From assembly GCA_035632415.1 (NCBI GenBank), contig DASQGW010000153.1, forward strand, positions 4,821-68,820: DNA of 64,000 nt, given 5' to 3'. The DNA is from Burkholderiales bacterium (GTDB taxonomy: Bacteria > Pseudomonadota > Gammaproteobacteria > Burkholderiales > SG8-39). This document shows positions 38,435 through 62,657 of the stretch, in pieces (within the stretch, counting starts at the first letter, position 1; each line of letters opens with the position of its first letter). The position numbers and the translations under genes were made by a program. Under the pieces are notes generated by a model, which was not told the DNA's origin, did not search any database, and saw only the letters and a list, made by a program, of their open reading frames with translations.

Positions 38435-38470
38435 GTGAATCCGCTACCGGCGCAGGGCTATACTTGGCTC

Positions 38471-42399: not shown

Positions 42400-42433
42400 A
42401 CCTTTCAACCTGGTCAAGTGAATGGAGGAAGCG

Positions 42434-43645: not shown

Positions 43646-43654
43646 GCAGTCGAA

Positions 43655-44539: not shown

Positions 44540-44552
44540 GCGGCGCCCGTCA

Positions 44553-46591: not shown

Positions 46592-46885
46592 ATGCCGGCC
46601 TATATCATCGCAATGGTCAACATAAAAGACCCGCAGAAATACCAGGAATATGCGAAACGGGCGGGTCCCGCCAATGCGAAACACGGCAGCCGCTTCCTGG
46701 TGCGGGGCGGCAAGAAGACCACGCTCGAAGGCGACATTCCCTTCGAGCGCATCGTCGTCAGCGAATTTCCCGACGTGGAAAGCGCGAAGAAGTTCTATGA
46801 CTCGCCCGAGTACCAGGACGCCCGCAAGCACCGCCTGGGCGCCGCCGACTTCCACATGGTCATCGTCGAGGGCGCGCAGCCTTGA
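46592..46885 (+). CDS. DUF1330 domain protein
   Basis: ATG at 46592 (track ORF begins at TTG 46589), preceded by an AAAGGAGAG Shine-Dalgarno. MPAYIIAMVNIKDPQKYQEY...FPDVESAKKFYDSPEYQ is characteristic of DUF1330. Confidence 0.8.
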   Translation: MPAYIIAMVNIKDPQKYQEYAKRAGPANAKHGSRFLVRGGKKTTLEGDIPFERIVVSEFPDVESAKKFYDSPEYQDARKHRLGAADFHMVIVEGAQP

Positions 46886-46921: not shown

Positions 46922-48217
46922 CTAGGGTCGGGCTGGAGCGTTCTTAGCAGCCGAAGTGCCGGCGATCCGCCCGAGCGCGACGGCGCAGAGCAGCCCGTTG
47001 CCCGAGAGATAGCCCCACACATGCGCGCCCGAGACGCCGCGCGCCGCGCCGCCGCCCGCGAACACGTTCGGCAGCGGCAGCACGCGCGCCGACTCGTCTA
47101 TGACCAGACCGCCTTGCGTGTGGAAGAGGGCGCCGGTGACCTTGATGCCGTAGTACGGCGCGACAAGCTTCGGCTTCGTCGTGAAGTCGCGGCCAAAGGG
47201 GTCGCGCCCCTTGCCTTCGGCGAAGCGCTCAACCCGACGCAGCGTCTCCCCCAGCTTCGGCAGCTCGTGTGCCGGGCGCACCGCGCCGGCGGCCTGCGCA
47301 TCGCGATAGTCGGGAAAGGTCATGCCGAGCTCGTGCAGTCGCTGGTCGTAGATGCACCAGGCGATGCCGCCAGGCTGGCGAATCACCGGGAGGCATTGCT
47401 CGGAGTAGCCGAGGTGCTCGTTCGAGAAGCGTTCGCCGTTCTCGTTGACCTGGATGCCGCCCTCGGTCATCAGCGCCCACGTAATCAGCACGCCATGCGG
47501 CGTCGCGACGGAGCCGTGGCCCTGGTAGGCGCTCATGTCCGCAACCGACGCGCCGATCGCAGTGCCCCATCTCATGGCGTCGCCCTGGTTGCCGACGTGC
47601 CCGAAGAAGAGCGCCGAGGAAATGTCCGGCAGGTAGCGTGCCACCATCTCCTTGTTGCCGCCGAAGCCCGAGCAGGCAAGGACGAGCGCCCCGTACTCCA
47701 CTTCCTCGAAGCTTCCGTCCGGCCGCTCGAACCGCACGCGCTCGCGATCGACGTCGGTGACGCGGGCGGAGGTCAGGATGTCCACCTCCGAGCACGCGCG
47801 CAGCAACGCCGCCATCAGCGCTTCGCCCGTCTTCTCCTGCAGCGCATGCATGCGCAGCACGCGGTGCCCGGGGTAGGTGAAGCCCTGAAGCACGTCGAAG
47901 CGCAGGCCATGGCAATCGTCCAGCCACTCGAGCGTCGGCCCAATGCTGCGCGTGACGCTGTCGACGATGCGCGGATCGGCTTCGCCGTGGTTCTTGCGCC
48001 GCACGTCGGCCGCGAAGAGCTCCGGCGAATCGTCGATGCCGGCGGCGCGCTGGTAACGCGTGCCGGCGGCGGGAATGAAACCGGAGGAGAGCGCCGTCGA
48101 GCCGGATGGACTTGCATCGCGCTCCAGGACCAGCACCTCGGCGCCGGCATCGCGCGCCGCCAGCGCGGCGGTGAGGCCGCAAGCGCCGGCGCCGACGATG
48201 ACGACCGGAACCTTCAA
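46922..48217 (-). CDS. FAD-dependent oxidoreductase (fumarate reductase / KstD-type flavoprotein family)
   Basis: 431 aa; VVIVGAGACGLTAALAARDAG dinucleotide fold; GSTALSSGFIPAAG; C-terminal FAGGGAARGVSG. Last gene of the long operon. Confidence 0.8.
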   Translation of the reverse strand: MKVPVVIVGAGACGLTAALAARDAGAEVLVLERDASPSGSTALSSGFIPAAGTRYQRAAGIDDSPELFAADVRRKNHGEADPRIVDSVTRSIGPTLEWLDDCHGLRFDVLQGFTYPGHRVLRMHALQEKTGEALMAALLRACSEVDILTSARVTDVDRERVRFERPDGSFEEVEYGALVLACSGFGGNKEMVARYLPDISSALFFGHVGNQGDAMRWGTAIGASVADMSAYQGHGSVATPHGVLITWALMTEGGIQVNENGERFSNEHLGYSEQCLPVIRQPGGIAWCIYDQRLHELGMTFPDYRDAQAAGAVRPAHELPKLGETLRRVERFAEGKGRDPFGRDFTTKPKLVAPYYGIKVTGALFHTQGGLVIDESARVLPLPNVFAGGGAARGVSGAHVWGYLSGNGLLCAVALGRIAGTSAAKNAPARP

Positions 48218-49689
48218 CTGGTCGGCCGGTGCAGGTAGCGTCCGCGCGGCTTTCCCGTCACGTTGCCGTTCTCGCAGGCAAGCTCGCCGCGCAGGAACGT
48301 AGCTTTCACCCGGGCCGAGAGCTCGATGCCCTCGAACGGCGTATAGCCTTGGGTCGACTCGGACTCCTTCGCGCGGATCGTCCAGCTCTCGGCCGGATCG
48401 ACGAGGGCGATATCCGCGTCCAGCCCTTCGGCGATGTCGCCTTTGGAGTTCAGGCCGAAGCGCCGCGCCGGGTTGTAGCTCGTCAGCGCAGCCATCCGGT
48501 TATAGGACAGGCCTCGCTTGCTTCCTTCCGAGACGAGCGCCGGCAGCAGGTATTCGGTGCCCCCGAAGCCCGATTTCGCCAGCCAGATGTTGCCGAAGGC
48601 CTTCTTTGCCACCTTGGTCTCGTGGCGGCAGCAGGCATGGTCGCTGACGACCCAGTGCACATTGCCCGCGAGCACCTGCTCCCACAAGTACTCGACGTCC
48701 TCGCGCGGCCGGATGGGCGGGTTCACCTTGGCAAGCGGCCCGGCCTTCGAATTCACGTCGAGAACGAGATGGCCGACGGTGACCTCGCGGCGGAAGTCGA
48801 TGTGCGGAAAGACCGCCTGCATCTGCAGCGCCGCGCTCAGCGCCTTGCGCGAGGACAGGTGCAGCAGGTTGATATTGGGCAACGCCGCCTCGTTAGCGAG
48901 GTAGGAGGCAATGAACACCGCCAGGCCTTCCGAATGCGGCGGCCGCGCCGCGTGGTAAGCCTCGAGGCCTTTCAGCTTGCCGGCGGTCTCCACCATCTTG
49001 GTGTACGCAGTCATGATCTCCGCGGTCTCGCAATGAAGCGACAGGCTGATCTGCGAGGCTTTCTCCGGGAAGCGCTCGCGCGCCTTCTGGACGCCCCGCA
49101 TGACGAACTCGAAGTGCGCGTAGTCGTAGCGCTCTTCGGGCCCGATCATCAGGAAGTCGCGCTGGGCATCGGAGCGGCCGTGCAGGCCGTGCGAGCCGTA
49201 GAACATGAAGATCTTGAAGGACGGCACGCCGTGCTTTTCCACCAATGATGGAATTTCGGAAATGTGCATGCGGTCCATCGGCGCCAGGTGATAACCATAG
49301 TCGGCGTGGTAGCGGCCCTTGGAGATGTCGAGCACCTCGGGGAAGAACTTGCGATACGGCCCGCCCTTGTTGAGGTAGTACTGCCCGGTGCGGAAGTAGG
49401 TCAGCATCGAGGTGACGCCGCCCTGCGCGGCGGCTCGGCTTTCGCTTGCCGCGTCTTCGCGCAGCGGCGAATAGATGCCGGCGTGCATGTGGGCGTCGAC
49501 CACGCCCGGGAAGGCGAGCCGGCCCTTGCCGTCGTAGACCTGCTTTGCCTCCTTCGCGGGGATTCCGGCGCCGATCTTCGCGAACTTGCCGCCGCGGACG
49601 GCGATGTCGGCATCATGGATCGCGTGGCCCTGCGGCCGCACGACGCGCACGTTCTTGATGAGCAAATCCCATTTCTTTGCGGTTGCCAT
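48214..49689 (-). CDS. cyclic amidohydrolase (hydantoinase/dihydropyrimidinase/enamidase-like)
   Basis: 491 aa; DLLIKNVRVV...GVVDAHMH metal-binding HxH at the expected N-terminal position; VSDHACC late motif; ADIALVDP. 4-nt overlap with the downstream gene. Confidence 0.8.
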   Translation of the reverse strand: MATAKKWDLLIKNVRVVRPQGHAIHDADIAVRGGKFAKIGAGIPAKEAKQVYDGKGRLAFPGVVDAHMHAGIYSPLREDAASESRAAAQGGVTSMLTYFRTGQYYLNKGGPYRKFFPEVLDISKGRYHADYGYHLAPMDRMHISEIPSLVEKHGVPSFKIFMFYGSHGLHGRSDAQRDFLMIGPEERYDYAHFEFVMRGVQKARERFPEKASQISLSLHCETAEIMTAYTKMVETAGKLKGLEAYHAARPPHSEGLAVFIASYLANEAALPNINLLHLSSRKALSAALQMQAVFPHIDFRREVTVGHLVLDVNSKAGPLAKVNPPIRPREDVEYLWEQVLAGNVHWVVSDHACCRHETKVAKKAFGNIWLAKSGFGGTEYLLPALVSEGSKRGLSYNRMAALTSYNPARRFGLNSKGDIAEGLDADIALVDPAESWTIRAKESESTQGYTPFEGIELSARVKATFLRGELACENGNVTGKPRGRYLHRPTS

Positions 49690-49698
49690 GTCTTCTCC

Positions 49699-50544
49699 CT
49701 ATTTTTCGTATCGTTTCCCGAGCTCCAGCATCTGCGGCGTACCGATCACGCCATTGAGACCCTGGAAGTCGAGCATGCGGTTGCGCAGGGCGGCGGTCGT
49801 GCCGTCGCGCTTCAGCACGGCGAAATATTCCTGCGCGGCGAAGGCGAGGCAGCGCGCGAGTCCTCCCGGGAAGATGGCAATGCGGTAGCCGAGCGACTGC
49901 AGGCTCTTCGCATCGAGCACCGGCGTCTTGCCGCCCTCCACCATGTTGGCGAGCATGGGAACGCGCTTGGCGAAGCGGCCAGTGATGGTCTTCATCTGCG
50001 CTTCGCTTTGCGGCGCCTCGATGAAGAGCACATCGGCGCCCGCTTCGACATACCGTTCGGCGCGCTCCACGGCCTTGTCGAGGCCTTCAACGGCAATCGC
50101 GTCGGTGCGCGCCATGATGAGCGCGCCAGTCCTCGCGTCCAATGCTGCCTGGATCTTGCCGACCATTTCTTCGGCGCTGACGAGCGCCTTGCCGTCGAGA
50201 TGCCCGCAGCGCTTCGGCGTGACCTGGTCCTCGAGCTGGATCACCGTCGCGCCGGCGCGCTCGAACTGCTTCACGGTGCGCGCAACGTTGAGCGCATTGC
50301 CGAAGCCGGTGTCGGCGTCGACGATGACCGGGAGCCCGATCCGCTCGCGGATGTTCTCCAGCGTGTCGGCCACTTCGCTCGCGGTCACGAGCCCGATATC
50401 GGGCCGACCAAGGCGCGTATAGGCGATGCTCGCGCCCGAGACGTACACCGCCTCGAACCCTGCCTGCTCGGCGAGAAGCGCCGTCAGCGCGTCGTAGACG
50501 CCGGGGGCGAGGAGGAGCGGATCACGCTCAAGCCTTTCGCGCAA
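49699..50544 (-). CDS. isocitrate lyase/PEP mutase superfamily lyase (methylisocitrate / 2,3-dimethylmalate lyase-like)
   Basis: 281 aa; GASIAYT...PVIVDADTGFGN and the catalytic loop KRCGH, which marks the lyase rather than the mutase branch. Confidence 0.82.
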   Translation of the reverse strand: MRERLERDPLLLAPGVYDALTALLAEQAGFEAVYVSGASIAYTRLGRPDIGLVTASEVADTLENIRERIGLPVIVDADTGFGNALNVARTVKQFERAGATVIQLEDQVTPKRCGHLDGKALVSAEEMVGKIQAALDARTGALIMARTDAIAVEGLDKAVERAERYVEAGADVLFIEAPQSEAQMKTITGRFAKRVPMLANMVEGGKTPVLDAKSLQSLGYRIAIFPGGLARCLAFAAQEYFAVLKRDGTTAALRNRMLDFQGLNGVIGTPQMLELGKRYEK

Positions 50545-51010
50545 GTTTCTTCTCCAGGTGGGGAAGCAGACCGCCGTCGCGGATGATGGCCATCAGGAAT
50601 GCCGGGATCGGCTCGCAGGCGAGCGTCTCGCCGGTGGTGCGATTCACCACCTTGCCGCGCTCGGCATCAACGTCGAGTTCGTCGCCGACCCGGATGCGCT
50701 TCGCATCGGCGCAGACGACGGCGGGCAGGCCGAGGTTGATCGCGTTGCGGTAGAAGAGCCCGGCGAACGATTCGGCGATGAGCACCGCGACACCCAGATG
50801 CTTGAGCGCTTCGGGTGCCTGCTCGCGCGAGGAGCCGGCGCCGAAGTTGCGGCCGCCGACGACGATGTCGCCCGGCTTCACTTCCCTGGCGAACGCAGGC
50901 GAGACCGATTCCAGGCAGTGCTTCGCGATTTCCTCGATGCCGAACTTCATGTAGCGGCCGGGCGCGATGACGTCCGTGTCCAGGTTGTCGCCGAAGACCC
51001 AGGCTTTCAC
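50528..51010 (-). CDS. aconitase-family hydratase small subunit (LeuD/HacB/DmdB type)
   Basis: In-frame GTG at 51010 (VKAWVFGDNLDTDVI) within track ORF 50528..51196. GGRNFGAGSSREQAP motif. GTGA overlap with the large-subunit stop. Confidence 0.85.
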   Translation of the reverse strand: MKAWVFGDNLDTDVIAPGRYMKFGIEEIAKHCLESVSPAFAREVKPGDIVVGGRNFGAGSSREQAPEALKHLGVAVLIAESFAGLFYRNAINLGLPAVVCADAKRIRVGDELDVDAERGKVVNRTTGETLACEPIPAFLMAIIRDGGLLPHLEKKLARKA

Positions 51011-52242
51011 GCGAGCAGATCCCGGGGGTCGGTGATGCGTCCGGTGATCGCCGAGGCCGCCACCGTGTAAGGCGAGGCGAGGTAGACCTGCGCCGCCGGA
51101 TCGCCCATGCGGCCCTTGAAGTTGCGCGCGGTGGTGGAGATGGTCACGGTATTCGCGGCGAGCAGGTTGGGGCCATAGCCTGCGCACATGCCGCACGAGT
51201 TGGCGAGCAGCTCCGCGCCGGCATCGAGCAGGACGCGGAGCGTGCCTTCGCGCTCTGCGGCCTGCTGGTCGCGCAGGCTCGCCGGTGCTACGAGCAGGCG
51301 AGTCTTCGCCTTGCGGCTTTTAAGCACCTTGGCGGCCATGCGCAGGTCGTCGAGCTTGGCCCCGGTGCACGCTCCTATGTAGGCGAGGTCGATCTTCTCG
51401 CTGAAGTCGCCCACGGGCTTGGTATTGGCGGGGCTGTGCGGCGCCGCGACCTGGGGCGCGAGCTCAGTTGCGTTGAATCGATGGTGCTGGAGCATCGGGG
51501 CGCCCGGGTCGCTGTCCCAGATCTCGCCTTTGCCGAGGTACTTCAGGGTGACCTCGTCTGAGGCGACCAGCCCGGTCTGGCCGCCGAGCTCGGCCGTCAT
51601 GTTGCAGAGGGTCATGCGCTCCTGCATCGAGAGTGCGCGGATCGCCGGGCCGCGGTATTCGACGGCTTGATACTGGCCGCCGTCCATGCCGAAGCGGCCG
51701 ATAAGGAAAAGCATGATGTCCTTCGCCGAGACGCCCGGAGCGAGCGCGCCGTCGAAGTCCATCGCAATCGTGTGCGGGACTTTGAGCCAGATCTCTCCGG
51801 TGACGACTACGCCGAGCATCTCGGTCGCGCCGATGCCGAACATGTACGTAGCGAAGGCGCCGCCGGTGGGCGAGTGGCTGTCGCCGCCGACGGCGAACAT
51901 GCCCGGACGCAGGTGGCCGCGCTCGGGGAGCACGACATGGCAGATGCCTTGCGCGTCGTAGAACGCGTCGACGCCGGCTTCCTTCACCCAGTCCTGCGCG
52001 ATCCGGATGATCTTGCGGCTCTCGTCGTCGTAGGCGGGAAGGTAGTGGTCGGTGATGACCACGAGCTTCGACGGATCCCAGACCTTTGCGCCGAGGCGCT
52101 CGAGCCTGGGCTTCAGCCTCCGCGGGCCGCTCGAGTCGTGCACCATCGCGAGGTCGACCTTGCAGGTGACGATCTCCCCCGGCGTCACCGATGCACGGCC
52201 GGCGGCGCGGGCGACGAGTTTCTGTGCGAGCGTTTGTGCCAT
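51007..52242 (-). CDS. aconitase-family hydratase large subunit (LeuC/HacA/DmdA type, ~410 aa short form)
   Basis: In-frame ATG at 52242 (MAQTLAQKLV) within track ORF 51007..52383. VGGDSHSPTGGAF; Fe-S ligand contexts IGACTG and NSCGMCAG. Confidence 0.85.
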   Translation of the reverse strand: MAQTLAQKLVARAAGRASVTPGEIVTCKVDLAMVHDSSGPRRLKPRLERLGAKVWDPSKLVVITDHYLPAYDDESRKIIRIAQDWVKEAGVDAFYDAQGICHVVLPERGHLRPGMFAVGGDSHSPTGGAFATYMFGIGATEMLGVVVTGEIWLKVPHTIAMDFDGALAPGVSAKDIMLFLIGRFGMDGGQYQAVEYRGPAIRALSMQERMTLCNMTAELGGQTGLVASDEVTLKYLGKGEIWDSDPGAPMLQHHRFNATELAPQVAAPHSPANTKPVGDFSEKIDLAYIGACTGAKLDDLRMAAKVLKSRKAKTRLLVAPASLRDQQAAEREGTLRVLLDAGAELLANSCGMCAGYGPNLLAANTVTISTTARNFKGRMGDPAAQVYLASPYTVAASAITGRITDPRDLLA

Positions 52243-52243
52243 C

Positions 52244-52945
52244 TCAGAGTCCCAGATACGCGCGCTTGAGCTCCGCGTTCGCGAGGAGCTCGGCCGGCGT
52301 GCCCTGGAAGACGATGGCGCCGTTCTCGAGGACGTAGGCGCGATTGGCGATCTCGAGGGACTGGCCGACGTTCTGCTCGACAAGCAGGATCGGCAGTCCC
52401 TCCTTGTTCAGCCGGGCGATGAGCGCAAAGAGCTCCTCGACGGCGACCGGCGAGAGGCCGAGCGACGGCTCATCGAGGATCAGCAGCCGCGGCTCTGCCA
52501 TCAGGCCGCGGCCAATCGCCAGCATCTGCTGCTCTCCGCCCGAGAGCGTGCCGGCGCGCTGGGCCGTGCGCTCCTTCAGCTTGGGGAACACGCTGAACAC
52601 GTGCTCGAGGTTCCTCTCGCGGTTCGCGCGGGCGCGGCGATAACTGCCGAGCTCGAGATTCTCGTGCACGGTGAGATTGGGAAAGACGCGGCGGCCTTCT
52701 GGAACATGGATGAGCCCCGCGGCGACGATATCCGTGTACCGCGAGCCCGCAATACTGCGATCTTCGAACTCGATTGTGCCGGAAAAGGCCGGCAGCAGGC
52801 CGGAGAGCGTGTTGTTGAGCGTGGTCTTTCCCGCGCCATTGGAGCCGAGGAGCGCGACCACTTCGCCCGGGCGGACGGCGAGGTCGATGCCGCGGAGGAC
52901 TTCGACCCGCCCATAGCCGCCGCGCAGCGCCGCGACTTCAAGCAT
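52244..52945 (-). CDS. ABC transporter ATP-binding protein (LivF-like), operon-embedded
   Basis: 233 aa; Walker A GSNGAGKTT; signature LSGGEQQML. Confidence 0.9.
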   Translation of the reverse strand: MLEVAALRGGYGRVEVLRGIDLAVRPGEVVALLGSNGAGKTTLNNTLSGLLPAFSGTIEFEDRSIAGSRYTDIVAAGLIHVPEGRRVFPNLTVHENLELGSYRRARANRERNLEHVFSVFPKLKERTAQRAGTLSGGEQQMLAIGRGLMAEPRLLILDEPSLGLSPVAVEELFALIARLNKEGLPILLVEQNVGQSLEIANRAYVLENGAIVFQGTPAELLANAELKRAYLGL

Positions 52946-53678
52946 AGGCGGCCCTCATGCGTGCGGCGGTTCCATGGCCGAGATACGCCTCGACGACGGC
53001 GGGGTCCGACGTGACTTCGCGCGGCGTGCCGTGCGCGATCAAGCGGCCGTTCGAGAGGACCCACGCCTCGTCCGAGAGGTTCATGACCGCGCGCAATACG
53101 TGCTCGACCATCAGGACGCTGATGCCGCCATCGCGGATGCCACGGATCACCGGGAGCACTTCATCGATCTCCCGCGGGTTTAGGCCGGCGAGAACCTCGT
53201 CGAGCAGCAAGAGGCGGGGCTCGGTCGCCAGCGCTCGTGCGAGCTCGAGCCGCTTGCGACCTGCGATGGTGAGGTTCGCCGCCAGCTTGTCGAGCTGTAC
53301 CGCGAGGCCGACCCGCGCCGCGACGGCTTCGGCTGCGCCGAGCGCGCTCGCTCGCGAAGGATGGCGAAGGTGGGCGCCGACCGCGATGTTTTCGCGCACG
53401 GTCTGGGCACCGAAGGGCTGCACGATCTGGAACGTCCGCGCCATGCCGAGGCGGCAAGCCTCGTGCGGCGGGATGCCGGTGATGTCGCGTCCTTCGAGCC
53501 GGACGCGACCGTGATCGGGCCGGACGAAACCGGAGATCAGGTTGAACACGGTGGTCTTGCCCGCGCCGTTCGGGCCGATCAGGGCCACGATCTTTCCCCG
53601 AGGCAAGGCGAGCGACACGTCGTCTACGGCGGCGAGGCCGCCGAAGCGCACAGAGAGCTTTTCGGCCTCGAGGATCAC
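52938..53678 (-). CDS. ABC transporter ATP-binding protein (LivG-like), operon-embedded
   Basis: In-frame GTG at 53678 ([14 protein letters not shown]) within track ORF 52938..54485. Walker [14 protein letters not shown] overlap with the permease stop. Confidence 0.88.
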
Positions 53679-55479: not shown

Positions 55480-55485
55480 TCCCGC

Positions 55486-56697
55486 TCAGCCCTTCCACGG
55501 GAACGAGGGCTGCGTCTCGGCGTAGGTCTTGGGCAGCACGACTTTGATGTCGTTCTTCAGCACCTGCATCATCAGCGGCTGCGCTCCCTGGTTCTGACCG
55601 TTCACGAACTTGGTCGGGCCGTACGGCATGAAGTGCTTGTCCCAGGTCGAGCCTGCGAGCGCGTTGACGATGTCGTCGCGCTTCGTCGACTTCGCCCGCT
55701 CGATCGCGTCGGCGAGGAGGTGCACCGCCGAGTAGTTGAGGTATACCTCGTAGGTGAAGAACTGATCCTTCATCGCGTCGACGCGCTTCTTCAGCGCCCA
55801 GGCGCGCTTGTCCTTCGGGTTGAACCAGTGGTTCACGTCGAGCACGCCGTTCGCGGCGTCGGAGAATTCTCTTACGAACTTGTACGACGAGGCGGCGCCG
55901 CCGAGCACCGAGTAGATCGCCTTCGGCACCACGTTCTGCTGCTTCATCGTGCGCACGAAGAGCGCGTACTCGTTGTAGTAGTTCGCCGGGATGACGATGT
56001 CGGGATTGACCGCCTTCACCCGCAGCACGATGTTGTTGAAGTCCCGCGTCGGGTTGGCGTGCTTGATCACTTCCTTGACTTCGAAGCCGAGGTGCGGCAG
56101 CTGCTGCGAGAGGAGGTTCGCCGTCCCCGTGCCGAAAAGCGACTCCTCGTGCACGATGACGACGGTCTTGGCCGGCTTGCCCGCGAGGTTGTTGAGCAGG
56201 ACGAGGTGGTTCATCGCCGTGTCGGCGCAGACCTTGTAGCCGGGGGCGAAGCGGAAGGTGTTGGCAAGCCCGCGCTCGACGATCTGGTCGGCGACGCCGA
56301 CGTCCACCACGTGAGGGATGTTGTACTTCGCGGCAGCCTGCGTCGTGGCGAGGCAGATGGCGGAGGCATAGGCGCCGACGATGGCGGACACGCCCGCCTC
56401 GTTCATCTTCTCGACTTCGGCGGCGCCGATTTCAGGCTTGGACTGCGCGTCGCCCAGCACCGCCTCGAGCTTGGCGCCGCCGAGCGACTTGATGCCGCCC
56501 GCCTTGTTGATGTCGTCGATCGCCATCTGGGCGCCGAGGCGCGAGAGGTTTCCGGAGTAGGCGAGGAAGCCGGTCACCGGATGCAAGACGCCGACCTTGA
56601 TGGCCTGGCCCTGGGCGCGTACGCCGAGCGGCAGCGCCGCGGTCGCGGCCAGCGCGGTGGTATTGATGAGGAACTGCCTGCGGTTCGTGGTGTTCAT
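55486..56697 (-). CDS. ABC substrate-binding protein (LivK-type fold) with twin-arginine-like signal
   Basis: 403 aa; N-terminus MNTTNRRQFLINTTALAATAALPLGVRAQG; IKVGVLHPVTGFLAYSG type I PBP pattern. Confidence 0.88.
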   Translation of the reverse strand: MNTTNRRQFLINTTALAATAALPLGVRAQGQAIKVGVLHPVTGFLAYSGNLSRLGAQMAIDDINKAGGIKSLGGAKLEAVLGDAQSKPEIGAAEVEKMNEAGVSAIVGAYASAICLATTQAAAKYNIPHVVDVGVADQIVERGLANTFRFAPGYKVCADTAMNHLVLLNNLAGKPAKTVVIVHEESLFGTGTANLLSQQLPHLGFEVKEVIKHANPTRDFNNIVLRVKAVNPDIVIPANYYNEYALFVRTMKQQNVVPKAIYSVLGGAASSYKFVREFSDAANGVLDVNHWFNPKDKRAWALKKRVDAMKDQFFTYEVYLNYSAVHLLADAIERAKSTKRDDIVNALAGSTWDKHFMPYGPTKFVNGQNQGAQPLMMQVLKNDIKVVLPKTYAETQPSFPWKG

Positions 56698-57059
56698 TTC
56701 TTCTCTCCGTTTAGTGATTCGCCCATGTCATTCCATACCTTCTGGTCCACGAGCTTGCCTGCGCGCACCGTGAACCGGTCGATGAAGCGGATGCCCTCGT
56801 ACCTGCTGCCGTCGAGGCGCTCGCCGTACAGCGTGCCGAAACAATAGACGACGTCGCCGGCGATGTCGAAGCGCTCGTAAGCCTTGCGCGCGCTGCGGTA
56901 GCGGCCTTTTGAGAACTCGACCAGGGCCTCCAGGGAATCGAAGCGCCGGCCGCCCGGGAAGACCATGTGGAATCCCGGGGCGAGGCGATCGCGCGCGGCG
57001 GCGAGATCGCGGCGCTCCATCGCCGCAAGATAGCTCTTGACTGTCTCCTCGGGCGTCAT
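56694..57059 (-). CDS. SnoaL-like / NTF2-fold protein
   Basis: 121 aa; N-terminal TPEETVKSYLAAMERRDLAAARDRLAPGF pattern typical of SnoaL/NTF2-like proteins. 4-nt overlaps on both sides. Confidence 0.65.
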   Translation of the reverse strand: MTPEETVKSYLAAMERRDLAAARDRLAPGFHMVFPGGRRFDSLEALVEFSKGRYRSARKAYERFDIAGDVVYCFGTLYGERLDGSRYEGIRFIDRFTVRAGKLVDQKVWNDMGESLNGEKK

Positions 57060-57832
57060 CCCTGCTCGATGAATTCCTTCAGCGCCTTCTCGGGCGGTTT
57101 GACGTAGTTGGAGCGCCGGCTCACCGCTGCCATGCCGGCCGACTCGCGCAGCCTGACGGCCATCTCGGCGCTCTTCGCGATCAGCGTGATGCCGTTGACG
57201 ATCGGCGCTCCTTCATAGTTCGCGCCGCGCTCGGAGCCGAAGAGCATCATCGGCAGTCCGCCTGCGGGCACGATGACGTCGGCACCCGCATCGAGCAGGA
57301 TGCGGCACTCGCGCTCCCAAAGCGGTTTCAATTTCTCGAGACCCTTGGGAGAGGCGAAAGCGTCGATGAAATCGGCGACCGTCGCCTGCACGGCGCGCAC
57401 CCCGACGACCCGGCTTTGCAGACCGTAGCGAATGACCTGATCTTCGTGCCATGGGATGAACACAGGATTGATCGTGATCAAGCCGAGCTTGCGTCCGAGC
57501 GTGCACGCGTGGAAGAGCGTCGTCTCGCCCAGCCCGAGCACCGGGATGTCGACCACCGATTTCACCTCGGCGAGTCCCGCATCCTGGAAGTGGGTGATGG
57601 CCACCGCCGCGTAGCCTTGCTGCTCGGCCTGCACGGCGTTCTTGATCAGGTTGCGCCCGATGCGGTACTCGGTGATCGCATGCGTGGTGGTCGCCGGCGG
57701 TGTCGTCGTATGGAACGTTGCGGAGAACTCGGGGTCCAGGATGCTCGTCAGGTGCGCCTCGACCTTCGCGATATACGGTGCCGTGAACTGCCGATCGGTG
57801 GCGCCCTGAAACCACAACTTGTATTTGCTCAT
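57056..57832 (-). CDS. Asp/Glu/hydantoin racemase-family protein (divergent)
   Basis: 258 aa. AVAITHFQDAGLAEVKSVVDIPVLGLGETTLFHACTLGRKLGLITIN follows the hydantoin-racemase pattern (xIACFGDPGLxAxRExxxxPVxGIxEA), and DVIVPAGGLPMM matches the second active-site stretch. Confidence 0.7.
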   Translation of the reverse strand: MSKYKLWFQGATDRQFTAPYIAKVEAHLTSILDPEFSATFHTTTPPATTTHAITEYRIGRNLIKNAVQAEQQGYAAVAITHFQDAGLAEVKSVVDIPVLGLGETTLFHACTLGRKLGLITINPVFIPWHEDQVIRYGLQSRVVGVRAVQATVADFIDAFASPKGLEKLKPLWERECRILLDAGADVIVPAGGLPMMLFGSERGANYEGAPIVNGITLIAKSAEMAVRLRESAGMAAVSRRSNYVKPPEKALKEFIEQG

Positions 57833-58611
57833 TTACTCTCCACAAGGGCCAATACGCGCAGCGGACTGCCGCTGCCATTGCGGATTTTCAACGGCGCCGC
57901 AAGAACGATTGCGCCGGTTGCCGGCAGCTTGTCCAGATTCTTGAGGCATTGCAGACCGTAACGCCCCGCGCCATGCATGTAATAGTGGCAAGGATAGGGC
58001 GGCCGCAGATGATAGGCCTGGCCCGCATCGGTGCCGATCGATTCGGTGCCGAAGCCGAGGATGTCGCGCTCCTCGACGAGGAAGCGCACCGCGTCCGTGT
58101 CCGGCCCCGGCGTGTGCTGGCCGGTCTCGTCGTAGTTCTGGTAGGCGACCGGGTCGCCGCTCTTCTTCGACCAGTCGGTGCGCATCAGGACCCAGGAACG
58201 CGGCGAGATGCGCCCGTGGCCCTTTTCCCATTTCAGCAGGAAAGGCTTGGTCAGCAGGAAGTCCGGATCCTTCGCCGCCTGCTTGCTGCAATCGATGACG
58301 AATGCCGGCCCGATGAAGCGCTCCGGCGCGATGCTGTCGACCGCATTGTTGGGCAGGTCCTTGCCGGAGACCCAGTGGATCGGCGCGTCGAAATGCGTTC
58401 CGGTGTGCTCGCCGCAGGAAAAATTGTTCCAGTACCAGGCCGGTCCGCGCTCGTCGTAGTGCGAGACCTCTTCGATGCGGAAAGGCCACGCCTGGCCCAT
58501 CTCCGGCGGCAGCGAGATGGAAGGAAACTCGGGCGAGAGCGTCTCGGTGAGATCGATGACCTTGATCTTTCCGGCGGTCAGCTCTTTGGCCAGCTGCGCG
58601 AGCGCGCTCAT
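57829..58611 (-). CDS. cyclase-family metal hydrolase (kynurenine formamidase/isatin hydrolase-like)
   Basis: 260 aa; signature HTGTHFDAPIHW (HxGTHxDxPxH). Confidence 0.82.
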   Translation of the reverse strand: MSALAQLAKELTAGKIKVIDLTETLSPEFPSISLPPEMGQAWPFRIEEVSHYDERGPAWYWNNFSCGEHTGTHFDAPIHWVSGKDLPNNAVDSIAPERFIGPAFVIDCSKQAAKDPDFLLTKPFLLKWEKGHGRISPRSWVLMRTDWSKKSGDPVAYQNYDETGQHTPGPDTDAVRFLVEERDILGFGTESIGTDAGQAYHLRPPYPCHYYMHGAGRYGLQCLKNLDKLPATGAIVLAAPLKIRNGSGSPLRVLALVESK

Positions 58612-58613
58612 GG

Positions 58614-58720
58614 TCTTGACCCCCTGACAAGGGGGTCGTGAGCGGCAGGCGAGCGGGAGGTTTGATTTTCGAAAACCCCCCGGCGCTTCGCGCCACCCCC
58701 CTTATCAGGGGGGCAATAGC
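58614..58720. repeat. nested-palindrome intercistronic element, copy 2
   Basis: CCCCCTGACAAGGGGG (58620-58635) ... GGCGAGCGGGAGG ... GAAAAC ... CCCCCCTTATCAGGGGGG (58696-58713). Same orientation, same flanks (TCTTGAC ... GCAGAA) and same architecture as the copy at 12134-12258. Confidence 0.8.
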
Positions 58721-58726
58721 AGAACC

Positions 58727-59959
58727 TCATGTGGAGAGTTCCTTTTCCAAAGCCTTCGGATTGTCGCGCCAACGGGCGAGCCACTCCTGCGCCACATCGC
58801 CGGGATACACGTCTTCGACCCCTTCGCGCAGCGCCTTGACTACGGCGTTGGCCAGCGCTGCCGGCGCGACCTTCGGCGGCGGCAGGAGCTGGTTCCACTC
58901 GTCGTCGAGCGGGCCGGGGAAGACGTTGATGACCCGGACGCCGGCAGGGCGCATTTCGGCGCGCAGGCACTGCGACAGCGAATGCGCCGCCGCCTTCGAT
59001 GCCGAGAAGGTGCCGTGTGGCGGGAAATTGGCGAGTGCGTAGATCGACAGCACATTGACCCAGGCGGTGGCGCTCGCAAGGCCGTCGGCGCCGCGGCCGC
59101 GCATCGCAGGGCCGAATTCCTGCGCGAGGCGCAGGAGGCCGAAGTAGTTGACGTCCATCTCGGCGCGCGCCGTGTCGACGCCCGAGCGATTGCTGATGCC
59201 GTAGGCGCGATGGTATTCGGCATTGTTGACGAGGATGTCGACCTTGCCGCCGATCTCGGCCGCGACCTCGCGTACGTTCTTCGAGTCCGTTACATCCAGC
59301 GGCAGGAGCGTCACCTGCTTGATCTTCTCCAGCTCGTCGAAGCCGGCAAATTTCTTCCAGGGCTCGGCATGCCCGACCCAGATGAGGTCTGCGCCGGCCG
59401 CGGCGAGCGCCTTGACGAGCGCTTGTCCGGCTGCGGTCTTGCCGTCAGTGACGAGCACCTTGCGAAACTTCGGGTCGCAGGTGAATTCGCGAAGCTGGCG
59501 ATCTTCAGCCATGTTTTCCTCCTTGCCGGGCAGGGCGACCATGACGGCCTGGCCGGCGCGGTCGAGCTTCGCCGCCACCGTGACCTTGCCGGGCGCTTGT
59601 GCCACCCGTTCATGCAAATGCGCGACCACCGTGGGGCCGCAGTCGAGCTTCACGAGCCCCAGCCGCCACGGCAGGCGCTCGCGAAAGAAGAGATCGTTGC
59701 TGTGGTGAAGCACCGTATCGGAGAGCAGCTCGCCGGTCTGCGGCTGCGGCTTCCAGTCCAGCCGGATGGAGAGGCACTGCTGGCACGCCTCGCGCGGCGG
59801 GTACTGCACGGTGCCGCAATCGCGGCATTGCTGCAGCTCGAAGCGACCGAGCGCGGCGGCAGCCGTCAGGCCGAGCGCGATGCGGCTCCGCGCCGCGGGC
59901 GGCAGCGTCGGCTGCCGTGTACGAAGGACTGGATTCTTTCTCTTTGGCCGCTCTAGCAC
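58727..59959 (-). CDS. DUF35 (Zn-ribbon + OB-fold) fused in frame to an SDR-like domain
   Basis: In-frame GTG at 59959 within track ORF 58727..61027. DUF35 part: GRFELQQCRDCGTVQYPPREACQQCLS (CxxC...CxxC) plus an OB-fold. There is no stop before MAEDRQLREF...VLVTDGKTAAG...NNAEY...SIYA...GTFSASKAA (SDR fold with FxxxK instead of YxxxK). Confidence 0.75.
   Translation of the reverse strand: MLERPKRKNPVLRTRQPTLPPAARSRIALGLTAAAALGRFELQQCRDCGTVQYPPREACQQCLSIRLDWKPQPQTGELLSDTVLHHSNDLFFRERLPWRLGLVKLDCGPTVVAHLHERVAQAPGKVTVAAKLDRAGQAVMVALPGKEENMAEDRQLREFTCDPKFRKVLVTDGKTAAGQALVKALAAAGADLIWVGHAEPWKKFAGFDELEKIKQVTLLPLDVTDSKNVREVAAEIGGKVDILVNNAEYHRAYGISNRSGVDTARAEMDVNYFGLLRLAQEFGPAMRGRGADGLASATAWVNVLSIYALANFPPHGTFSASKAAAHSLSQCLRAEMRPAGVRVINVFPGPLDDEWNQLLPPPKVAPAALANAVVKALREGVEDVYPGDVAQEWLARWRDNPKALEKELST
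59518..59524 (-). promoter_or_regulatory. internal Shine-Dalgarno (AAGGAGG) 5 nt upstream of the in-frame ATG at 59512
   Basis: Minus strand reads ctgcccggcAAGGAGGaaaacATGgctgaa, exactly at the DUF35/SDR domain boundary. Confidence 0.55.
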
Positions 59960-61113
59960 GAAACAATGGCGGCGCCCGAGCCGAGGCCGCGGTCGAAGTT
60001 GATCATGCCGAATCCGCTCACGAGACCGAGTTTCGCATCCTTGACCTGCCGAGCCCCCGCGGCGCTTGTGAGCTGGCGCAATGCCTCCACCATGCCGAGC
60101 GAGCCGCCCGCGGCGCCGGCCTGGCCCACGGAAAGCTGGCCGCCGGATGTGTTGAGCGGGAAGGAGCCCTCGCAGGTAAAGGTGTGGTTGCGGATGAATT
60201 CCGGGCCTTCTCCTTTCGCGCAGAAGCCGAGATCCTCGATCTGCATGAGCGAGATCACCGGATAGTCGTCGTAGGTCTGGACGAAGTCCATGTCCTCGGG
60301 CGCCGCGCCAGCCTGCTCGTAGAGGTCGGCGCGATCGAGCACCCAACCGGCGCGCATCTGCACCGGGTCGGAAGCAAAGGCGTTGTGGCGCTCGATCGTT
60401 CCGAGCAGCCGCGCATACTGCAGGCCCAATGCCTTCGCCCGTTGCTCGCTCAGCACCAGGAACCCGTCGGCGCCGGCGCAGGGCATCACGCAATCGAAGA
60501 GATGCAGCGGATCGGCGATCGGCCGTGCGCCCATGTACTCGTCCAGCGTGAGCGGCTTCTTGAAAAGCGCATGCTCGAACTTGAGCGCATTCGCACGCTG
60601 AGCCACGCACAGCTTGCCGAAGTCCTCCCGCGTCGCCCCATGCGTTCGCATGTAGTACGCCGTGAGGAAAGCAAAGCTCGCATTCGGCCCGCCGGCACCA
60701 TAGGGATACACCGCGTCGCGGGCGAACTGGCTGAAGTTGGCGAGCGTGAGGCGAAAGGAGTCCACATGGTTCGTGTCGCCGGCAATGCAGGCGACGACAT
60801 CGGCATCTCCGGCCTGCACCGCTCGCGCGGCGCGCCGGAGCATCACCACGCCGCTCGCGCCGCCGAAAGGCACGTGGTCGAGCCAGCGCGGCGAAAGGCC
60901 GAGATGCTGGGTCAGGCCGATGGCGGTGTCCGGGGCGAGCGTGAAGCTCGAAACGGCGAGGCCGTCGATGTCGGCCTTGTTGAGCCTGCTTTGCTTCAAC
61001 AGGTCGGAGAGGCACCTTGCCAGCCACCAGTGCGCCGAGCGAATTGAATAGCGCACATAGGGAACGGTAACGGGCACGGCCACGGCGACACCTTCGTAGC
61101 TACGCCGGGTCAT
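59953..61113 (-). CDS. thiolase-fold protein, SCP-x/Ltp type (nucleophilic Cys apparently absent)
   Basis: In-frame ATG at 61113 (MTRRSYEGVAVAV) within track ORF 59953..61272. HVPFGGASGVVMLRRAARAVQAGDADVVACIAGD aligns by eye to the thiolase xxxCASGxxA...G...D.V.V.G.E region with Gly in place of Cys. C-terminal NTSGGQLS...GFGMI. ATGA overlap with the ligase stop. Confidence 0.8.
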   Translation of the reverse strand: MTRRSYEGVAVAVPVTVPYVRYSIRSAHWWLARCLSDLLKQSRLNKADIDGLAVSSFTLAPDTAIGLTQHLGLSPRWLDHVPFGGASGVVMLRRAARAVQAGDADVVACIAGDTNHVDSFRLTLANFSQFARDAVYPYGAGGPNASFAFLTAYYMRTHGATREDFGKLCVAQRANALKFEHALFKKPLTLDEYMGARPIADPLHLFDCVMPCAGADGFLVLSEQRAKALGLQYARLLGTIERHNAFASDPVQMRAGWVLDRADLYEQAGAAPEDMDFVQTYDDYPVISLMQIEDLGFCAKGEGPEFIRNHTFTCEGSFPLNTSGGQLSVGQAGAAGGSLGMVEALRQLTSAAGARQVKDAKLGLVSGFGMINFDRGLGSGAAIVSC

Positions 61114-62579
61114 TTCCGTCGTTTGCGGTCGCGCAGATCGAAGCTCTCCGCGGGGTTGAGCGCGAAGTCGGCGAGCTTCGCCTTCTGCACCTTGTTGGTG
61201 GAGGTCACGGGAAGCTCCCGCAGGAAGGCCACATGCCCCGGCGCCTTGAAGTAGGCGAGGCGCTCGAGGCACCAGTCCTGGATCGACAGCGCGGTCTCGC
61301 GACTGGCGCCGGTCCCGGGGTTGAGCACAACGCAGGCCATCACTTCCTCGTCGCGCACTTCATCCGGCCTGGCGATCACGGCGACCTGGGCGATCAGCGG
61401 ATGCCCGGCGAGCGCGGCCTCGACCTCGAGCGCGGCGATGTTCTCGCCCGCCCGGCGGATGATGTTCTTGCGGCGATCGACGAAGTGCAGGCTGCCATCG
61501 GGTCCGCGGCGCACGCAGTCGCCGGTATGGAACCAGCCCTCGCGCCACGCTTGCACGGTCGCCTCGTCGTCTTTCAGGTAGCCGGAGAAGAAGCCACGCC
61601 GGGGATCCGGGCCGGCCTGGCGCACCAGCAGCTCGGAGTTTCCATCGATGGAAACTTCCAGGCCCGGCGGCTCCCTTCCGATGCACCGCGTGCCCACATG
61701 CCGCGGCTCGCGGCTCGCCGCGATGAGCGCGCCGCCTCCGGTTTCCGTCATTGCCCAGGCTTCGATCAGGGGAAAGCCGAAACGGGCTTCGAAAGCAGCG
61801 TGATCTTTCGGATTGGCGTTCGCGCCGTAGCCGAAGCGCACCCGATGCGCACGGTCTTGGACGCTCGGCGGAAGCTGGAGCAGGATCGCGGGCATCACGC
61901 CAAGATAGTGGACGATGGTCGCGCGCGAGTCGACGACGTCGTTCCACCAGGTCTTCGGATGGAACCGATCGAGCTGCACCACGCAGCCGGCGGCAAGGAT
62001 CATCGCCGTGGTCGAGACGGCGAGCGCGTTCATATGGAAGAGGGGCAGCGGCGTGATGAGCCGCTCCTCGCCGAAGCGCAGCGCGCACAGGCCGCCTTCA
62101 TCGACATAGCGCCGGCCGACGTTCAGGAAATAGAAGTTGCCGAGCAGGCAGCCCTTCGGCTTGCCGGTGGTGCCCGAGGTGTAGAGGAGGGCGCATTCCT
62201 CGGCCTTGCCGCGTGCCGGGGCCGCCGGCGGGTCGAACCGCACGAGCCTGTCGGAGTCGACGACGAGCGCGGCCTCGCTATGCGCAACCACGTAGTCCGA
62301 TTCATTCTTCTGGTAGTCCGGATTCATCGGCACCACGGCGATGCCGAGCGAGTTGAGCGCGAGGAAGTGCAGCAGGAACTCGGGGCAGTTGGGTAGCCTC
62401 AGGGCGACGCGATGTCCGGGCGCGTAGCCCTTCCCAGCGTACAGGCGAGCGATCTCTGCGATGCGCTCGTGCGCCTGCGCATACGAGAGCTCGACCTTCT
62501 GCGGCGGGAAGTGCAGGAATGGCTTGGCGCCGTACGCGCGGGCGGTTTGCTCGAACGCCGAGAAGACCGTCGTCGTCAC
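61110..62579 (-). CDS. acyl-CoA synthetase / AMP-dependent ligase (first gene of the long operon)
   Basis: In-frame GTG at 62579 within track ORF 61110..63404. LYTSGTTGKPKGC, AMTETGG, TGDCV...DRRKN, TSTNKVQK motifs. Confidence 0.85.
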   Translation of the reverse strand: MTTTVFSAFEQTARAYGAKPFLHFPPQKVELSYAQAHERIAEIARLYAGKGYAPGHRVALRLPNCPEFLLHFLALNSLGIAVVPMNPDYQKNESDYVVAHSEAALVVDSDRLVRFDPPAAPARGKAEECALLYTSGTTGKPKGCLLGNFYFLNVGRRYVDEGGLCALRFGEERLITPLPLFHMNALAVSTTAMILAAGCVVQLDRFHPKTWWNDVVDSRATIVHYLGVMPAILLQLPPSVQDRAHRVRFGYGANANPKDHAAFEARFGFPLIEAWAMTETGGGALIAASREPRHVGTRCIGREPPGLEVSIDGNSELLVRQAGPDPRRGFFSGYLKDDEATVQAWREGWFHTGDCVRRGPDGSLHFVDRRKNIIRRAGENIAALEVEAALAGHPLIAQVAVIARPDEVRDEEVMACVVLNPGTGASRETALSIQDWCLERLAYFKAPGHVAFLRELPVTSTNKVQKAKLADFALNPAESFDLRDRKRRK

Positions 62580-62657
62580 CGGACCGGATGTTAAGATGCC
62601 GCGCGCTTGCCAGACAACGGGACTTCGCGCGGCCGGCGATGAGCCACTAGGAGAAGC

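Follow-up and report, generated by a model that had tools for sequence, protein, structure and literature searches.

A predicted isatin-forming operon of the iad type, without an oxygenase gene and with an additional enzyme module, in an uncultured Burkholderiales genome

The iad locus (iadABCDEFGHIJK-R) for degradation of the auxin indole-3-acetate (IAA) has been described in Variovorax paradoxus CL14, Achromobacter, Bradyrhizobium and Roseibium (PMC9613470; PMC10374108; bioRxiv 10.1101/2025.10.25.684584). Genetics and metabolomics in Variovorax indicate that IadF, IadG and IadH strip the acetate side chain of dioxindole-3-acetate (DOAA), with IadI acting downstream; the later intermediates are isatin and isatinate, and anthranilate is the end product (bioRxiv 10.1101/2025.10.25.684584; PMC9613470). 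In this work, a stretch of 64,000 nucleotides of a Burkholderiales bacterium (GenBank assembly GCA_035632415.1, contig DASQGW010000153.1, positions 4,821 to 68,820; hereafter the window) was analyzed, in which sixteen minus-strand genes, G01 to G16, run from position 62579 to 46922. The best reading of this block is a single co-transcribed catabolic operon of an uncultured soil Burkholderiales genome. Based on sequence comparison, we propose that it probably serves the uptake of an already oxidized auxin derivative and its catabolism through isatin, as a variant of the iad locus. The iadFGHI stage is known. What appears to be new is an iad-type operon without an oxygenase, extended by an undescribed module and carried by an uncultured lineage.

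The first four genes of the block are as follows.

61110..62579, minus strand: G01, acyl-CoA ligase, IadF orthologue (Pfam AMP-binding and AMP-binding_C)
59953..61113, minus strand: G02, thiolase-fold protein without the nucleophilic Cys, IadG orthologue, Ltp2-like (Pfam Thiolase_C_1)
58727..59959, minus strand: G03, DUF35 (Zn ribbon and OB fold) fused to a short-chain dehydrogenase/reductase (SDR)-like domain, IadH orthologue (Pfam zf-ChsH2, OB_ChsH2_C and adh_short)
57829..58611, minus strand: G04, isatin hydrolase orthologue, IadI (PDB matches to isatin hydrolases)

These genes are collinear with iadFGHI, and their products are 50, 67, 52 and 62% identical to the ligase, thiolase (IadG), DUF35-SDR protein (IadH) and cyclase of Roseibium aggregatum, respectively. 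For G01, the identity to the product of the Roseibium IadF-position gene is over the full length, and that to the Sagittula counterpart is 48%. The plasmid of Roseibium (Labrenzia) aggregatum has the order MarR, reductase, Rieske alpha, Rieske beta, AMP-ligase, thiolase, SDR, cyclase and SDR, and the order ligase, thiolase, DUF35/SDR and cyclase was also found in Sulfitobacter and Sagittula. G04 was matched to isatin hydrolase A (PDB 5nnb) with E = 1.6e-112 and to 5nmp with E = 2.8e-112, at about 62-66% identity. It has the features of the isatin hydrolases (PF04199), namely the Mn-binding HxxxHxD plus Gln, His79 and the Asp193-His207 pair. All seven catalytic and metal-binding residues listed for the Labrenzia aggregata isatin hydrolase A (LaIHA; PMC6117287) are kept (H69, H73, D75, H79, D193, H207 and Q219). 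They lie in the aligned motifs EHTGTHFDAPIH at residues 68-79, GTDAGQ at 193-198, PCHY at 207-210 and GLQC at 219-222. Thus, G04 resembles LaIHA, LaIHB and RsIH (PDB 5NNB, 5NNA, 4J0N and 5NMP) in fold, in its Mn ligands and in its Asp-His dyad, the above identity being to the A isoforms, whereas its genomic context is unlike that of the Labrenzia/Roseibium enzyme and its activity is predicted. From these comparisons, the operon very likely runs through isatin with IadFGHI chemistry.

The initial annotation of this DNA had described the block as an orphan that could be mapped to no named pathway. This no longer holds for G01-G04. The match to a characterized cluster covers four of the sixteen genes, with a fifth, G05, recurring in such loci; the rest were unmatched in the literature searched. 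The annotation's idea of an undescribed uptake-plus-degradation system is therefore retained for the variant as a whole and for its second half, and given up for the isatin-forming stage. Its proposal of an N-heterocyclic carboxylate substrate was a good guess, the relevant ring being oxindole/isatin.

The chemistry of the side-chain cleavage was considered from the active-site residues. G02 has GGASG at residues 84-88 in place of the xCxSG motif of degradative SCP2-type thiolases and YDDY at 281-284 where SCP2 thiolases have HDCF, and it lacks both the Cys of the former motif and the His/Cys pair of the latter. It had been called Cys-less; the nucleophilic Cys is indeed missing, but the protein contains eight Cys in total. 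GGASG and YDDY were found in every IadG homologue checked, including those of the related loci L086-L088 and L091. The YDDY motif aligns with Y294 of Ltp2 (PDB 6ok1), and the equivalent of Y344 is Gly, so that the placement of G02 in the Ltp2 aldolase family is tentative; both tyrosines are presumably catalytic in Ltp2. With the Ltp2-ChsH2(DUF35) aldolase (PDB 6OK1) and the Cys-less SCP2-thiolase-like proteins 9MYR and 4U4E, G02 shares a Gly for the nucleophilic Cys, the YDxY/F motif and a DUF35 partner, which Ltp2 requires and which is here fused in G03. It differs in the Gly at the Tyr344 position, in a DUF35 fused to an SDR-like domain instead of a MaoC hydratase, and in a proposed substrate that is an oxindole, not a steroid. 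The published ketothiolase annotation of IadG is probably wrong, and a retro-aldol cleavage is more likely. G03 carries CxxC...CxxC at residues 45-62. The Tyr of its SDR YxxxK motif (residues 318-322) is replaced in six of six aligned IadH homologues, by Phe in G03, L001, L002 and Roseibium and by Thr or Ser in Sagittula and Sulfitobacter. The Lys of this motif is kept in the uncultured-lineage proteins (G03, L001 and L002), whose cultured counterparts differ: Roseibium has Asn at this place, and Sagittula and Sulfitobacter have Ala. The IadH "alcohol dehydrogenase" of the published pathway may be inactive or atypical.

Apart from the collinear four genes, the operon shares with the iad loci the predicted isatin intermediate and an attached uptake system of the Liv or TRAP type. 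It differs from them in that the window lacks IadCDE, an IadJ orthologue, the MarR regulator IadR and IadAB. In tblastn searches with Roseibium queries (E <= 1e-10), IadC, IadD and IadE had no match in the 64-kb window; no MarR homologue was found there either, and the best match to IadJ was only 31% identical. The additions of the operon are G05, the SnoaL-like G06, the hydratase G12/G13 of the LeuCD type, the PrpB-like lyase G14, the cyclic amidohydrolase G15 and the flavoprotein G16, which resembles fumarate reductases. A PrpD-family gene lies close by, and the ABC importer sits in the middle of the operon.

To follow the conservation of the block, all window proteins were compared by tblastn with related loci. 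The set, with one genome per species, comprised 80 loci, all from uncultured genomes or single cells, mostly of soil Burkholderiales, with no cultured isolate; Rieske genes were searched for within +/-10 kb. The block from the thiolase to the racemase gene was present in 52 loci. LeuC and/or G15 accompanied it in 32 of them, and a Rieske gene was in reach in none of these 32. Rieske oxygenase genes were found in two of the 52 loci (L024 and L082), both without LeuC and G15. Neither LeuC/G15 nor Rieske genes were seen in 18, most of which are short contigs ending near the block. The recurrent order is ligase, thiolase-fold protein, DUF35-SDR, cyclase, racemase-like protein, (SnoaL), LeuC, LeuD, (lyase), amidohydrolase and (flavoprotein or the SDR D1), and the recurrent upstream layout is a divergent SDR (U1) with a TRAP transporter. 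As the gene order is conserved in dozens of loci, the arrangement is not a chance juxtaposition, a possibility raised in the initial annotation, and the conserved synteny that it had suggested looking for was found, within one lineage. The locus counts are inflated by shared descent, because all synteny of LeuCD/G15 with iadFGHI comes from that lineage.

The isatin-forming genes are followed by G05 and G06.

57056..57832, minus strand: G05, Asp/Glu/hydantoin-racemase-family protein (Pfam Asp_Glu_race)
56694..57059, minus strand: G06, SnoaL/NTF2-like small protein, accessory (Pfam SnoaL_2)

G05 adjoins iadFGHI-type genes in 52 uncultured-genome loci, in varied orientations, and a G05-like gene also lies beside iadFGHI on plasmids of the cultured Sagittula stellata, Sulfitobacter sp. 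THAF37 and Agrobacterium pusense. Close relatives of G05 were found in uncultured genomes only. Judged by these neighborhoods, G05 is the most faithful companion of the iadFGHI module. The accessible iad papers do not mention a racemase-like companion gene. Within its family, G05 falls in the hydantoin/allantoin-racemase branch. Alignment with allantoin/hydantoin racemases (3qvj) placed C79 of these enzymes opposite His81 and C184 opposite Ala190. Both catalytic Cys positions are replaced in G05 and in the profile of 17 homologues, so that G05 does not qualify as a hydantoin or allantoin racemase. The family contains 1,235 proteins at E <= 1e-10, of which the 120 best are at least 79% identical. 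Distant homologues (42-62% identical) occur in unrelated contexts, with TRAP and beta-oxidation genes or with a luciferase-like monooxygenase and a sulfatase. A structure predicted by AlphaFold from 17 close homologues of G05 was unusable, with a mean pLDDT of 46.6. Homologues of G06 (68-76% identical) were found in 14 of the 52 loci, and the Sagittula cluster is adjoined by a non-orthologous NTF2-family gene. The Sulfitobacter locus with the G05-like gene (L091, plasmid pTHAF37_e) is a full iadCDEFGHIJ set, followed by the G05-like gene, a second thiolase-fold/OB-fold pair, TRAP genes and a second acyl-CoA ligase. Its opposite strand carries cupin, FAH-family, C-N hydrolase and Asp/Glu-racemase genes, which may degrade the aromatic product.

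Five importer genes come next.

55486..56697, minus strand: G07, Liv-type periplasmic binding protein, twin-arginine signal RRQFL at residues 6-10 (Pfam Peripla_BP_6, 176 bits)
54607..55479, minus strand: G08, LivH-type permease (Pfam BPD_transp_2)
53675..54703, minus strand: G09, LivM-type permease, start GTG 54703 or ATG 54556 (Pfam BPD_transp_2)
52938..53678, minus strand: G10, LivG-type ATPase (Pfam ABC_tran and BCA_ABC_TP_C)
52244..52945, minus strand: G11, LivF-type ATPase (Pfam ABC_tran)

The full embedded importer, from the binding protein to LivF, was found at this position elsewhere only in L010; the contig of L009 ends inside the binding-protein gene. The G07 homologues of L009 and L010 are 90% identical to G07. 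A more distant Liv-type set lies on the opposite strand in L005 and L011, and most relatives have a divergent TRAP transporter in place of the ABC importer. This swap of ABC and TRAP systems among relatives points to a carboxylate as the substrate. Because the oxygenase is absent and the importer is unlike those of canonical loci, the substrate is probably an already oxidized IAA derivative. A second Liv-type ABC system is present just downstream of the operon on the opposite strand (binding protein 42422-43645, permeases 43655-45473), as is a long AMP-binding protein (37787-40111). The neighbors at 37787-45473 are shared with L092 and L093, whereas in L002 the Liv system is missing and the genes for the AMP-binding protein, RNase T and RNase H are retained. 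They look like conserved chromosomal context outside the operon.

For the last five genes, the iad papers searched describe no counterpart.

51007..52242, minus strand: G12, LeuC/HacA-family (archaeal-type) Fe-S hydratase large subunit, not housekeeping LeuC (NCBIfam subfamily NF001614, 509 bits)
50528..51010, minus strand: G13, LeuD/DmdB-family small subunit (NCBIfam TIGR02087, 184 bits; specificity-loop region GRYMKF)
49699..50544, minus strand: G14, PEP-mutase/isocitrate-lyase-superfamily C-C lyase, PrpB-like (Pfam PEP_mutase)
48214..49689, minus strand: G15, cyclic amidohydrolase, allantoinase/hydantoinase/dihydroorotase class (best PDB match allantoinase 3e74, 141 bits; L-hydantoinase 1gkr)
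46922..48217, minus strand: G16, soluble fumarate-reductase-like flavoprotein with a non-fumarate active site (Pfam FAD_binding_2)

None of the catabolic proteins of the operon reached an NCBIfam equivalog cutoff. G12 contains the Cys ligand motifs GACTG and SCGMC and scored below the equivalog models (LEU2, 351 vs 611; leuC, 238 vs 560). The matches of G12 and G13 are at the subfamily level (NF001614 and TIGR02087), and the pair does not qualify as the 3-isopropylmalate dehydratase LeuCD. A G12-type LeuC follows G05 in 28 of the 52 related loci. G14 reached 302 bits against the prpB equivalog TIGR02317 (cutoff 354) and has KRCGH at residues 111-115. G15 remained below the cutoffs for allantoinase (215 vs 358) and D-hydantoinase (184 vs 393), and it has the motifs DAHMH at 65-69, FKIF at 158-161, HCE, HLS and SDHA. 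We take these to form a binuclear metal site (HxH, carbamylated Lys, His, His, Asp). An exact-sequence look-up of G15 returned no record. Among the 21 loci with adequate flanks, G15 adjoins the core block in 15. Its junctions measure 0-32 nt or overlap in three upstream arrangements (LeuD/G15, lyase/G15 and racemase/G15). The gene for a pyridoxal-phosphate enzyme that often follows G15 in relatives was rejected as a pathway member, since it is the housekeeping cysteine synthase A (549 bits vs a cutoff of 387). The best PDB matches of G16 are the flavocytochrome c3 fumarate reductases and urocanate reductase. The positions aligned to H365 and H504 are kept, and those aligned to R402 and R545 are both Tyr (LGYSE and GYLSGN). 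We assume that, in Shewanella numbering, Arg402, Arg545, His365 and His504 are the substrate-binding and catalytic residues. Since both fumarate-binding arginines are Tyr, G16 is not a fumarate reductase.

G12-G16 probably form one functional module. In favor of this are the tight or overlapping G15 junctions and related combinations in two further loci. At 8739-18279, L057 has TRAP, G05-like, LeuC, LeuD, HyuB, HyuA, isochorismatase-family and G16-like flavoprotein genes without iadFGHI, and it may represent a sister pathway with an ATP-dependent HyuAB lactamase in the role of G15. The plasmid pDND3A of Rhodococcus gordoniae (L089, 121375-146817) carries an FAD-binding protein, a G15-like protein, a CoA transferase and a major facilitator superfamily transporter; IclR, CoA-ester lyase, cyclase and PrpD genes adjoin them, followed by an amidase and hydantoinase A/B. 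The G16-like and G15-like proteins of this plasmid are 38% and 65% identical to those of the operon. The latter value is high across phyla, which suggests horizontal transfer of the G15-type amidohydrolase.

The literature searched contained no described pathway that combines a hydratase, lyase, amidohydrolase and flavoprotein of the types of G12-G16, and the supplements of PMC9613470 contain no gene table naming these families. Partial parallels exist. In anaerobic indoleacetate metabolism (the iaa pathway of Aromatoleum/Azoarcus), hydantoinase-type "2-oxoindoleacetyl-CoA gamma-lactamases" have been predicted, a precedent for a reaction in which the lactam ring of a 2-oxindole-acetate derivative is opened and an (aminophenyl)succinate skeleton results (PMC5214803). 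CoA activation is also common to both. The lactamases of that pathway are ATP-dependent and of the HyuAB type, whereas the candidate here is a metal amidohydrolase, and no mutase is present in the operon. In the anaerobic pathway, a B12 mutase and beta-oxidation lead to 2-aminobenzoyl-CoA. The methylcitrate cycle (PrpD, aconitase and PrpB) employs the same families in the same logical order, including a lyase with KRCGH; it differs in that the operon has no synthase, G14 is below the prpB cutoff and the LeuC models are far below theirs. Another parallel is offered by dimethylmaleate hydratase and dimethylmalate lyase of nicotinate fermentation.

The following route is consistent with these assignments. 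The importer (Liv-type ABC here, TRAP in relatives) would bring in an oxidized indole-3-acetate derivative, that is, 2-oxindole-3-acetate (oxIAA), DOAA or a ring isomer. By homology, G01 would form the CoA thioester of an acid of the 3-hydroxy-2-oxindole-3-acetate (DOAA) type, and G04 would open isatin to isatinate. In between, G02 with the DUF35 domain of G03 would cleave the C-C bond by a retro-aldol reaction to isatin and acetyl-CoA. We infer this reaction in preference to thiolysis because the hydroxyl-bearing carbon of DOAA-CoA is tertiary and not oxidizable to a 3-keto group. In the second module, G15 may open the oxindole lactam to (2-aminophenyl)succinate, G16 may desaturate this skeleton, and the hydratase G12/G13 may add water to give (2-aminophenyl)malate, which equals ring-opened DOAA. 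The module would thus pass through (2-aminophenyl)succinate, -maleate and -malate, and its product would either re-enter G01-G04 at the level of DOAA or be split to isatinate and acetate, a step for which G14 is the candidate. Water, and not O2, would then be the source of the C3 oxygen. This role of the second module is a tentative assignment.

A more specific form of this scheme, oxygenase-independent use of the oxidized auxin end products of plants (oxIAA, DOAA or the quinolone isomer), appears rather doubtful. It would require that G15 opens the ring, G16 desaturates, G05 sets the geometry or stereochemistry and LeuCD hydroxylates C3 from water, after which the Ltp2-like aldolase would yield isatin or the PrpB-like lyase isatinate. 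Plants form quinolone-4-carboxylate from oxidized IAA, and bacteria reduce such quinolones. The literature searched contained nothing on a quinolone-4-carboxylate link to IAA, on catabolism of oxIAA with hydantoinase-type enzymes or on this gene combination.

Several observations weigh against uptake of an oxidized auxin derivative and its catabolism by all sixteen genes. The synteny of LeuCD/G15 with iadFGHI comes from one uncultured lineage only, and the cultured Alphaproteobacteria with iadFGHI and G05 are without LeuCD, G15 and G16. An oxygenase gene could be present in another part of the genome. For the substrate and for all steps of the second module, the assignments are deduced from family membership and gene order. 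G05 has no catalytic cysteines and the SDR domain of G03 no canonical Tyr. The G14 lyase and G16 are each found in five of the 21 loci with adequate flanks. A close characterized relative of G07 is absent, its best PDB match being just 127 bits. Finally, in the related Betaproteobacteria L092-L094, a G15 homologue (84-85% identical) stands alone, without a catabolic partner, beside cysK and a Che/Pil-type chemosensory cluster, in the same chromosomal neighborhood as the window.

These points were weighed against three other explanations. The first is that the organism is a canonical IAA degrader with a split locus, in which iadCDE and IadJ are encoded elsewhere in the genome and IAA is the substrate. 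LeuCD, the lyase, G15 and G16 would then work downstream of isatinate or on a by-product and would not replace the first steps. The Variovorax iadCDE genes can be separated from the remaining locus and function in trans on their own (bioRxiv 10.1101/2025.10.25.684584). The contigs of uncultured genomes are fragments, so that absence within +/-10 kb proves nothing; L024 and L082 carry Rieske genes beside the same core block, and G05 also occurs in the full Sulfitobacter locus. However, no Rieske gene was within reach in any of the 32 loci that carry LeuC or G15, and the two Rieske loci are without both. Moreover, the importer is unlike those of canonical loci (the TRAP binding protein has <= 29% identity, in one locus only). 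Family scans also found no enzyme in the operon for conversion of isatinate to anthranilate, neither a thiamine-diphosphate decarboxylase nor an aldehyde dehydrogenase. On balance, a split locus is unlikely.

The second is a positional composite, in which an iadFGHI-G05-LeuCD island has inserted beside resident G15, G16 and D1 genes of unrelated function (e.g., hydantoin-, pyrimidine- or imide-type), co-transcription is incidental and the sixteen genes do not form a single pathway. The adjacency of G15 could be positional and not functional because G15 stands alone in L092-L094, where the downstream neighborhood (Liv ABC, AMP-binding, RNase T and RNase H) matches that of the window. The enoyl-CoA hydratase gene of these loci and of L002 was not found among the annotated open reading frames of the window. 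With more than 7,400 hits at E <= 1e-60, the G15 family greatly exceeds the G05 family (1,235 at E <= 1e-10), and Actinobacteria carry the G16/G15 pair in the absence of iad genes. On the other hand, tight or overlapping G15 junctions in at least three arrangements would be unexpected for a promoter-bearing resident gene that is merely adjacent. The L057 cluster, linking G05-like, LeuCD, HyuAB lactam hydrolase and G16-like genes, suggests a functional set, and a PrpD-family gene is shared between this locus and that of Rhodococcus. We consider such a composite improbable.

The third is a non-auxin substrate, such as a different alpha-keto-lactam or 3-hydroxy-lactam carboxylate, e.g., from indole, quinoline-4-carboxylate or another plant or microbial alkaloid. 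Both the importer and the entire second half depart from canonical iad loci, cyclase-family enzymes accept other substrates (kynurenine formamidase, phosphotriesterase), and the general reasoning of the initial annotation points the same way. The identity of G04 to the isatin hydrolases, with all catalytic and metal residues, nevertheless argues for isatin or a close analogue, and the gene order that G01-G04 share with loci linked to IAA by genetics points to the same intermediates. This explanation is very improbable. Nicotinate fermentation (enamidase, dimethylmaleate hydratase and dimethylmalate lyase), utilization of hydantoin or allantoin, cyclic imides from tetrapyrrole oxidation, and biotin were dropped, given the isatin hydrolase match of G04 and the lack of an equivalog fit. 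We regard an iad-type operon for an already oxidized auxin derivative as the most probable reading of the block.

The layout of the block is consistent with one transcription unit. Each of the sixteen genes translates as an open frame with a single terminal stop. Starts and stops overlap at ten unambiguous junctions, by 4, 7, 4, 4, 4, 4, 8, 4, 17 and 4 nt. The G08/G09 junction is ambiguous: with GTG 54703 as the LivM start the two genes overlap by 97 nt, and with ATG 54556 they are 50 nt apart. Short gaps are 6, 1 and 9 nt long, and the sole long gap (58612-58726) has 115 nt. The initial annotation had reported sixteen minus-strand genes with almost no spacing, eleven overlaps, three gaps of 1-9 nt and one real gap with a palindrome, and no visible regulator; all of this was reproduced, and Pfam agreed with every family that it named. 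The G+C content is about 66% across the window and its composition is unbroken at the block. Terminator-like sites within the block are not enriched (8 found vs 10.4 expected). The elements in the gap and at the boundaries are as follows.

58612..58726, no strand: palindromic dispersed REP/MITE-like repeat, filling the only real intergenic gap
46720..46751, minus strand: stem-loop of 12 bp, 170 nt past the G16 stop, the best stem-loop, with a weak T-tail (pattern match only)
62580..62657, no strand: divergent intergenic region of 78 bp, presumed promoter region, with no adjacent regulator gene
62658..63431, plus strand: U1, FabG-like SDR, divergent from the operon (Pfam adh_short_C2, 196 bits)
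63428..64000, plus strand: MmgE/PrpD-family gene, 5' part, cut by the window end, start GTG 63428 or ATG 63446
45837..46565, minus strand: D1, SDR downstream of the operon (Pfam adh_short; NCBIfam NF004779, 317 bits)

The gap repeat has 25-nt inverted arms and a hairpin of -64.7 kcal/mol (z = -5.96). It is about 110 nt long, with terminal GCCCCCCTGACAAGGGGG inverted motifs around an inner G/C-rich palindrome, and it occurs in two copies, with five motif hits in the window vs 0 expected. Because the second copy lies at ~12135-12255, the repeat is not specific to the operon, and the idea that the palindrome is an operon-specific operator was rejected. It looks like an element of this genome of the repetitive extragenic palindrome (REP) or miniature inverted-repeat transposable element (MITE) type. 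The second copy sits between two adjacent squalene/phytoene-synthase-family genes (11287-13071) of the HpnC/HpnD type, a pair that suggests hopanoid synthesis in the source organism. Other window genes are housekeeping (ClpP, UDG, FabI-like, SLT and RNase T).

The stem-loop downstream of G16 is a possible end of the operon. A scan of the divergent intergenic region for sigma-70-like sites passed none, and no regulator was found among the annotated open reading frames of the window. U1 is only 28-31% identical to IadJ (best 31% over 165 residues). Its homologues (67-83% identical) occupy the same divergent position in 12 related loci, where the TRAP transporter lies between U1 and the ligase. 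The PrpD-family frame reads MQRLANYIV...HADETDDSH...HPG. It is 70-87% identical to the gene after the U1 SDR in nine of these loci and 39% identical to the Rhodococcus gordoniae PrpD-family gene, and the L001 homologue has the Pfam domains MmgE_PrpD_N/C. The block extends functionally past 62579 into U1 and the PrpD-family gene, both of which recur at that position in relatives. On the other side, D1 homologues (68-79% identical) lie directly or a few kb after G15 in L015, L023, L031, L038, L051 and L076; L037 and L054 also carry one, at a position that was not mapped.

Destruction of auxin by rhizosphere bacteria alters root growth, and the Variovorax iad locus is now being engineered for that purpose. 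The lineage described here, which seems common in soil metagenomes, has the isatin-forming half without an oxygenase, and surveys of degraders by oxygenase or iadA/iadB marker genes would therefore miss it. Regardless of what the second module does, the comparison bears on the published iad model: IadG is aldolase-like, the SDR domain of IadH is without its catalytic Tyr, and a cysteine-free racemase-fold gene accompanies iadFGHI. If the oxygenase-independent use of oxidized plant auxin products is true, it would give first functions to the G05 family and to LeuCD enzymes with aryl substrates, and would represent a third aerobic-independent logic for catabolism of the auxin ring. Should the second module make the 3-hydroxy-oxindole intermediate from water, this would reveal how soil bacteria use oxidized auxin catabolites released by plants, and several uncharacterized enzyme subfamilies would gain functions.

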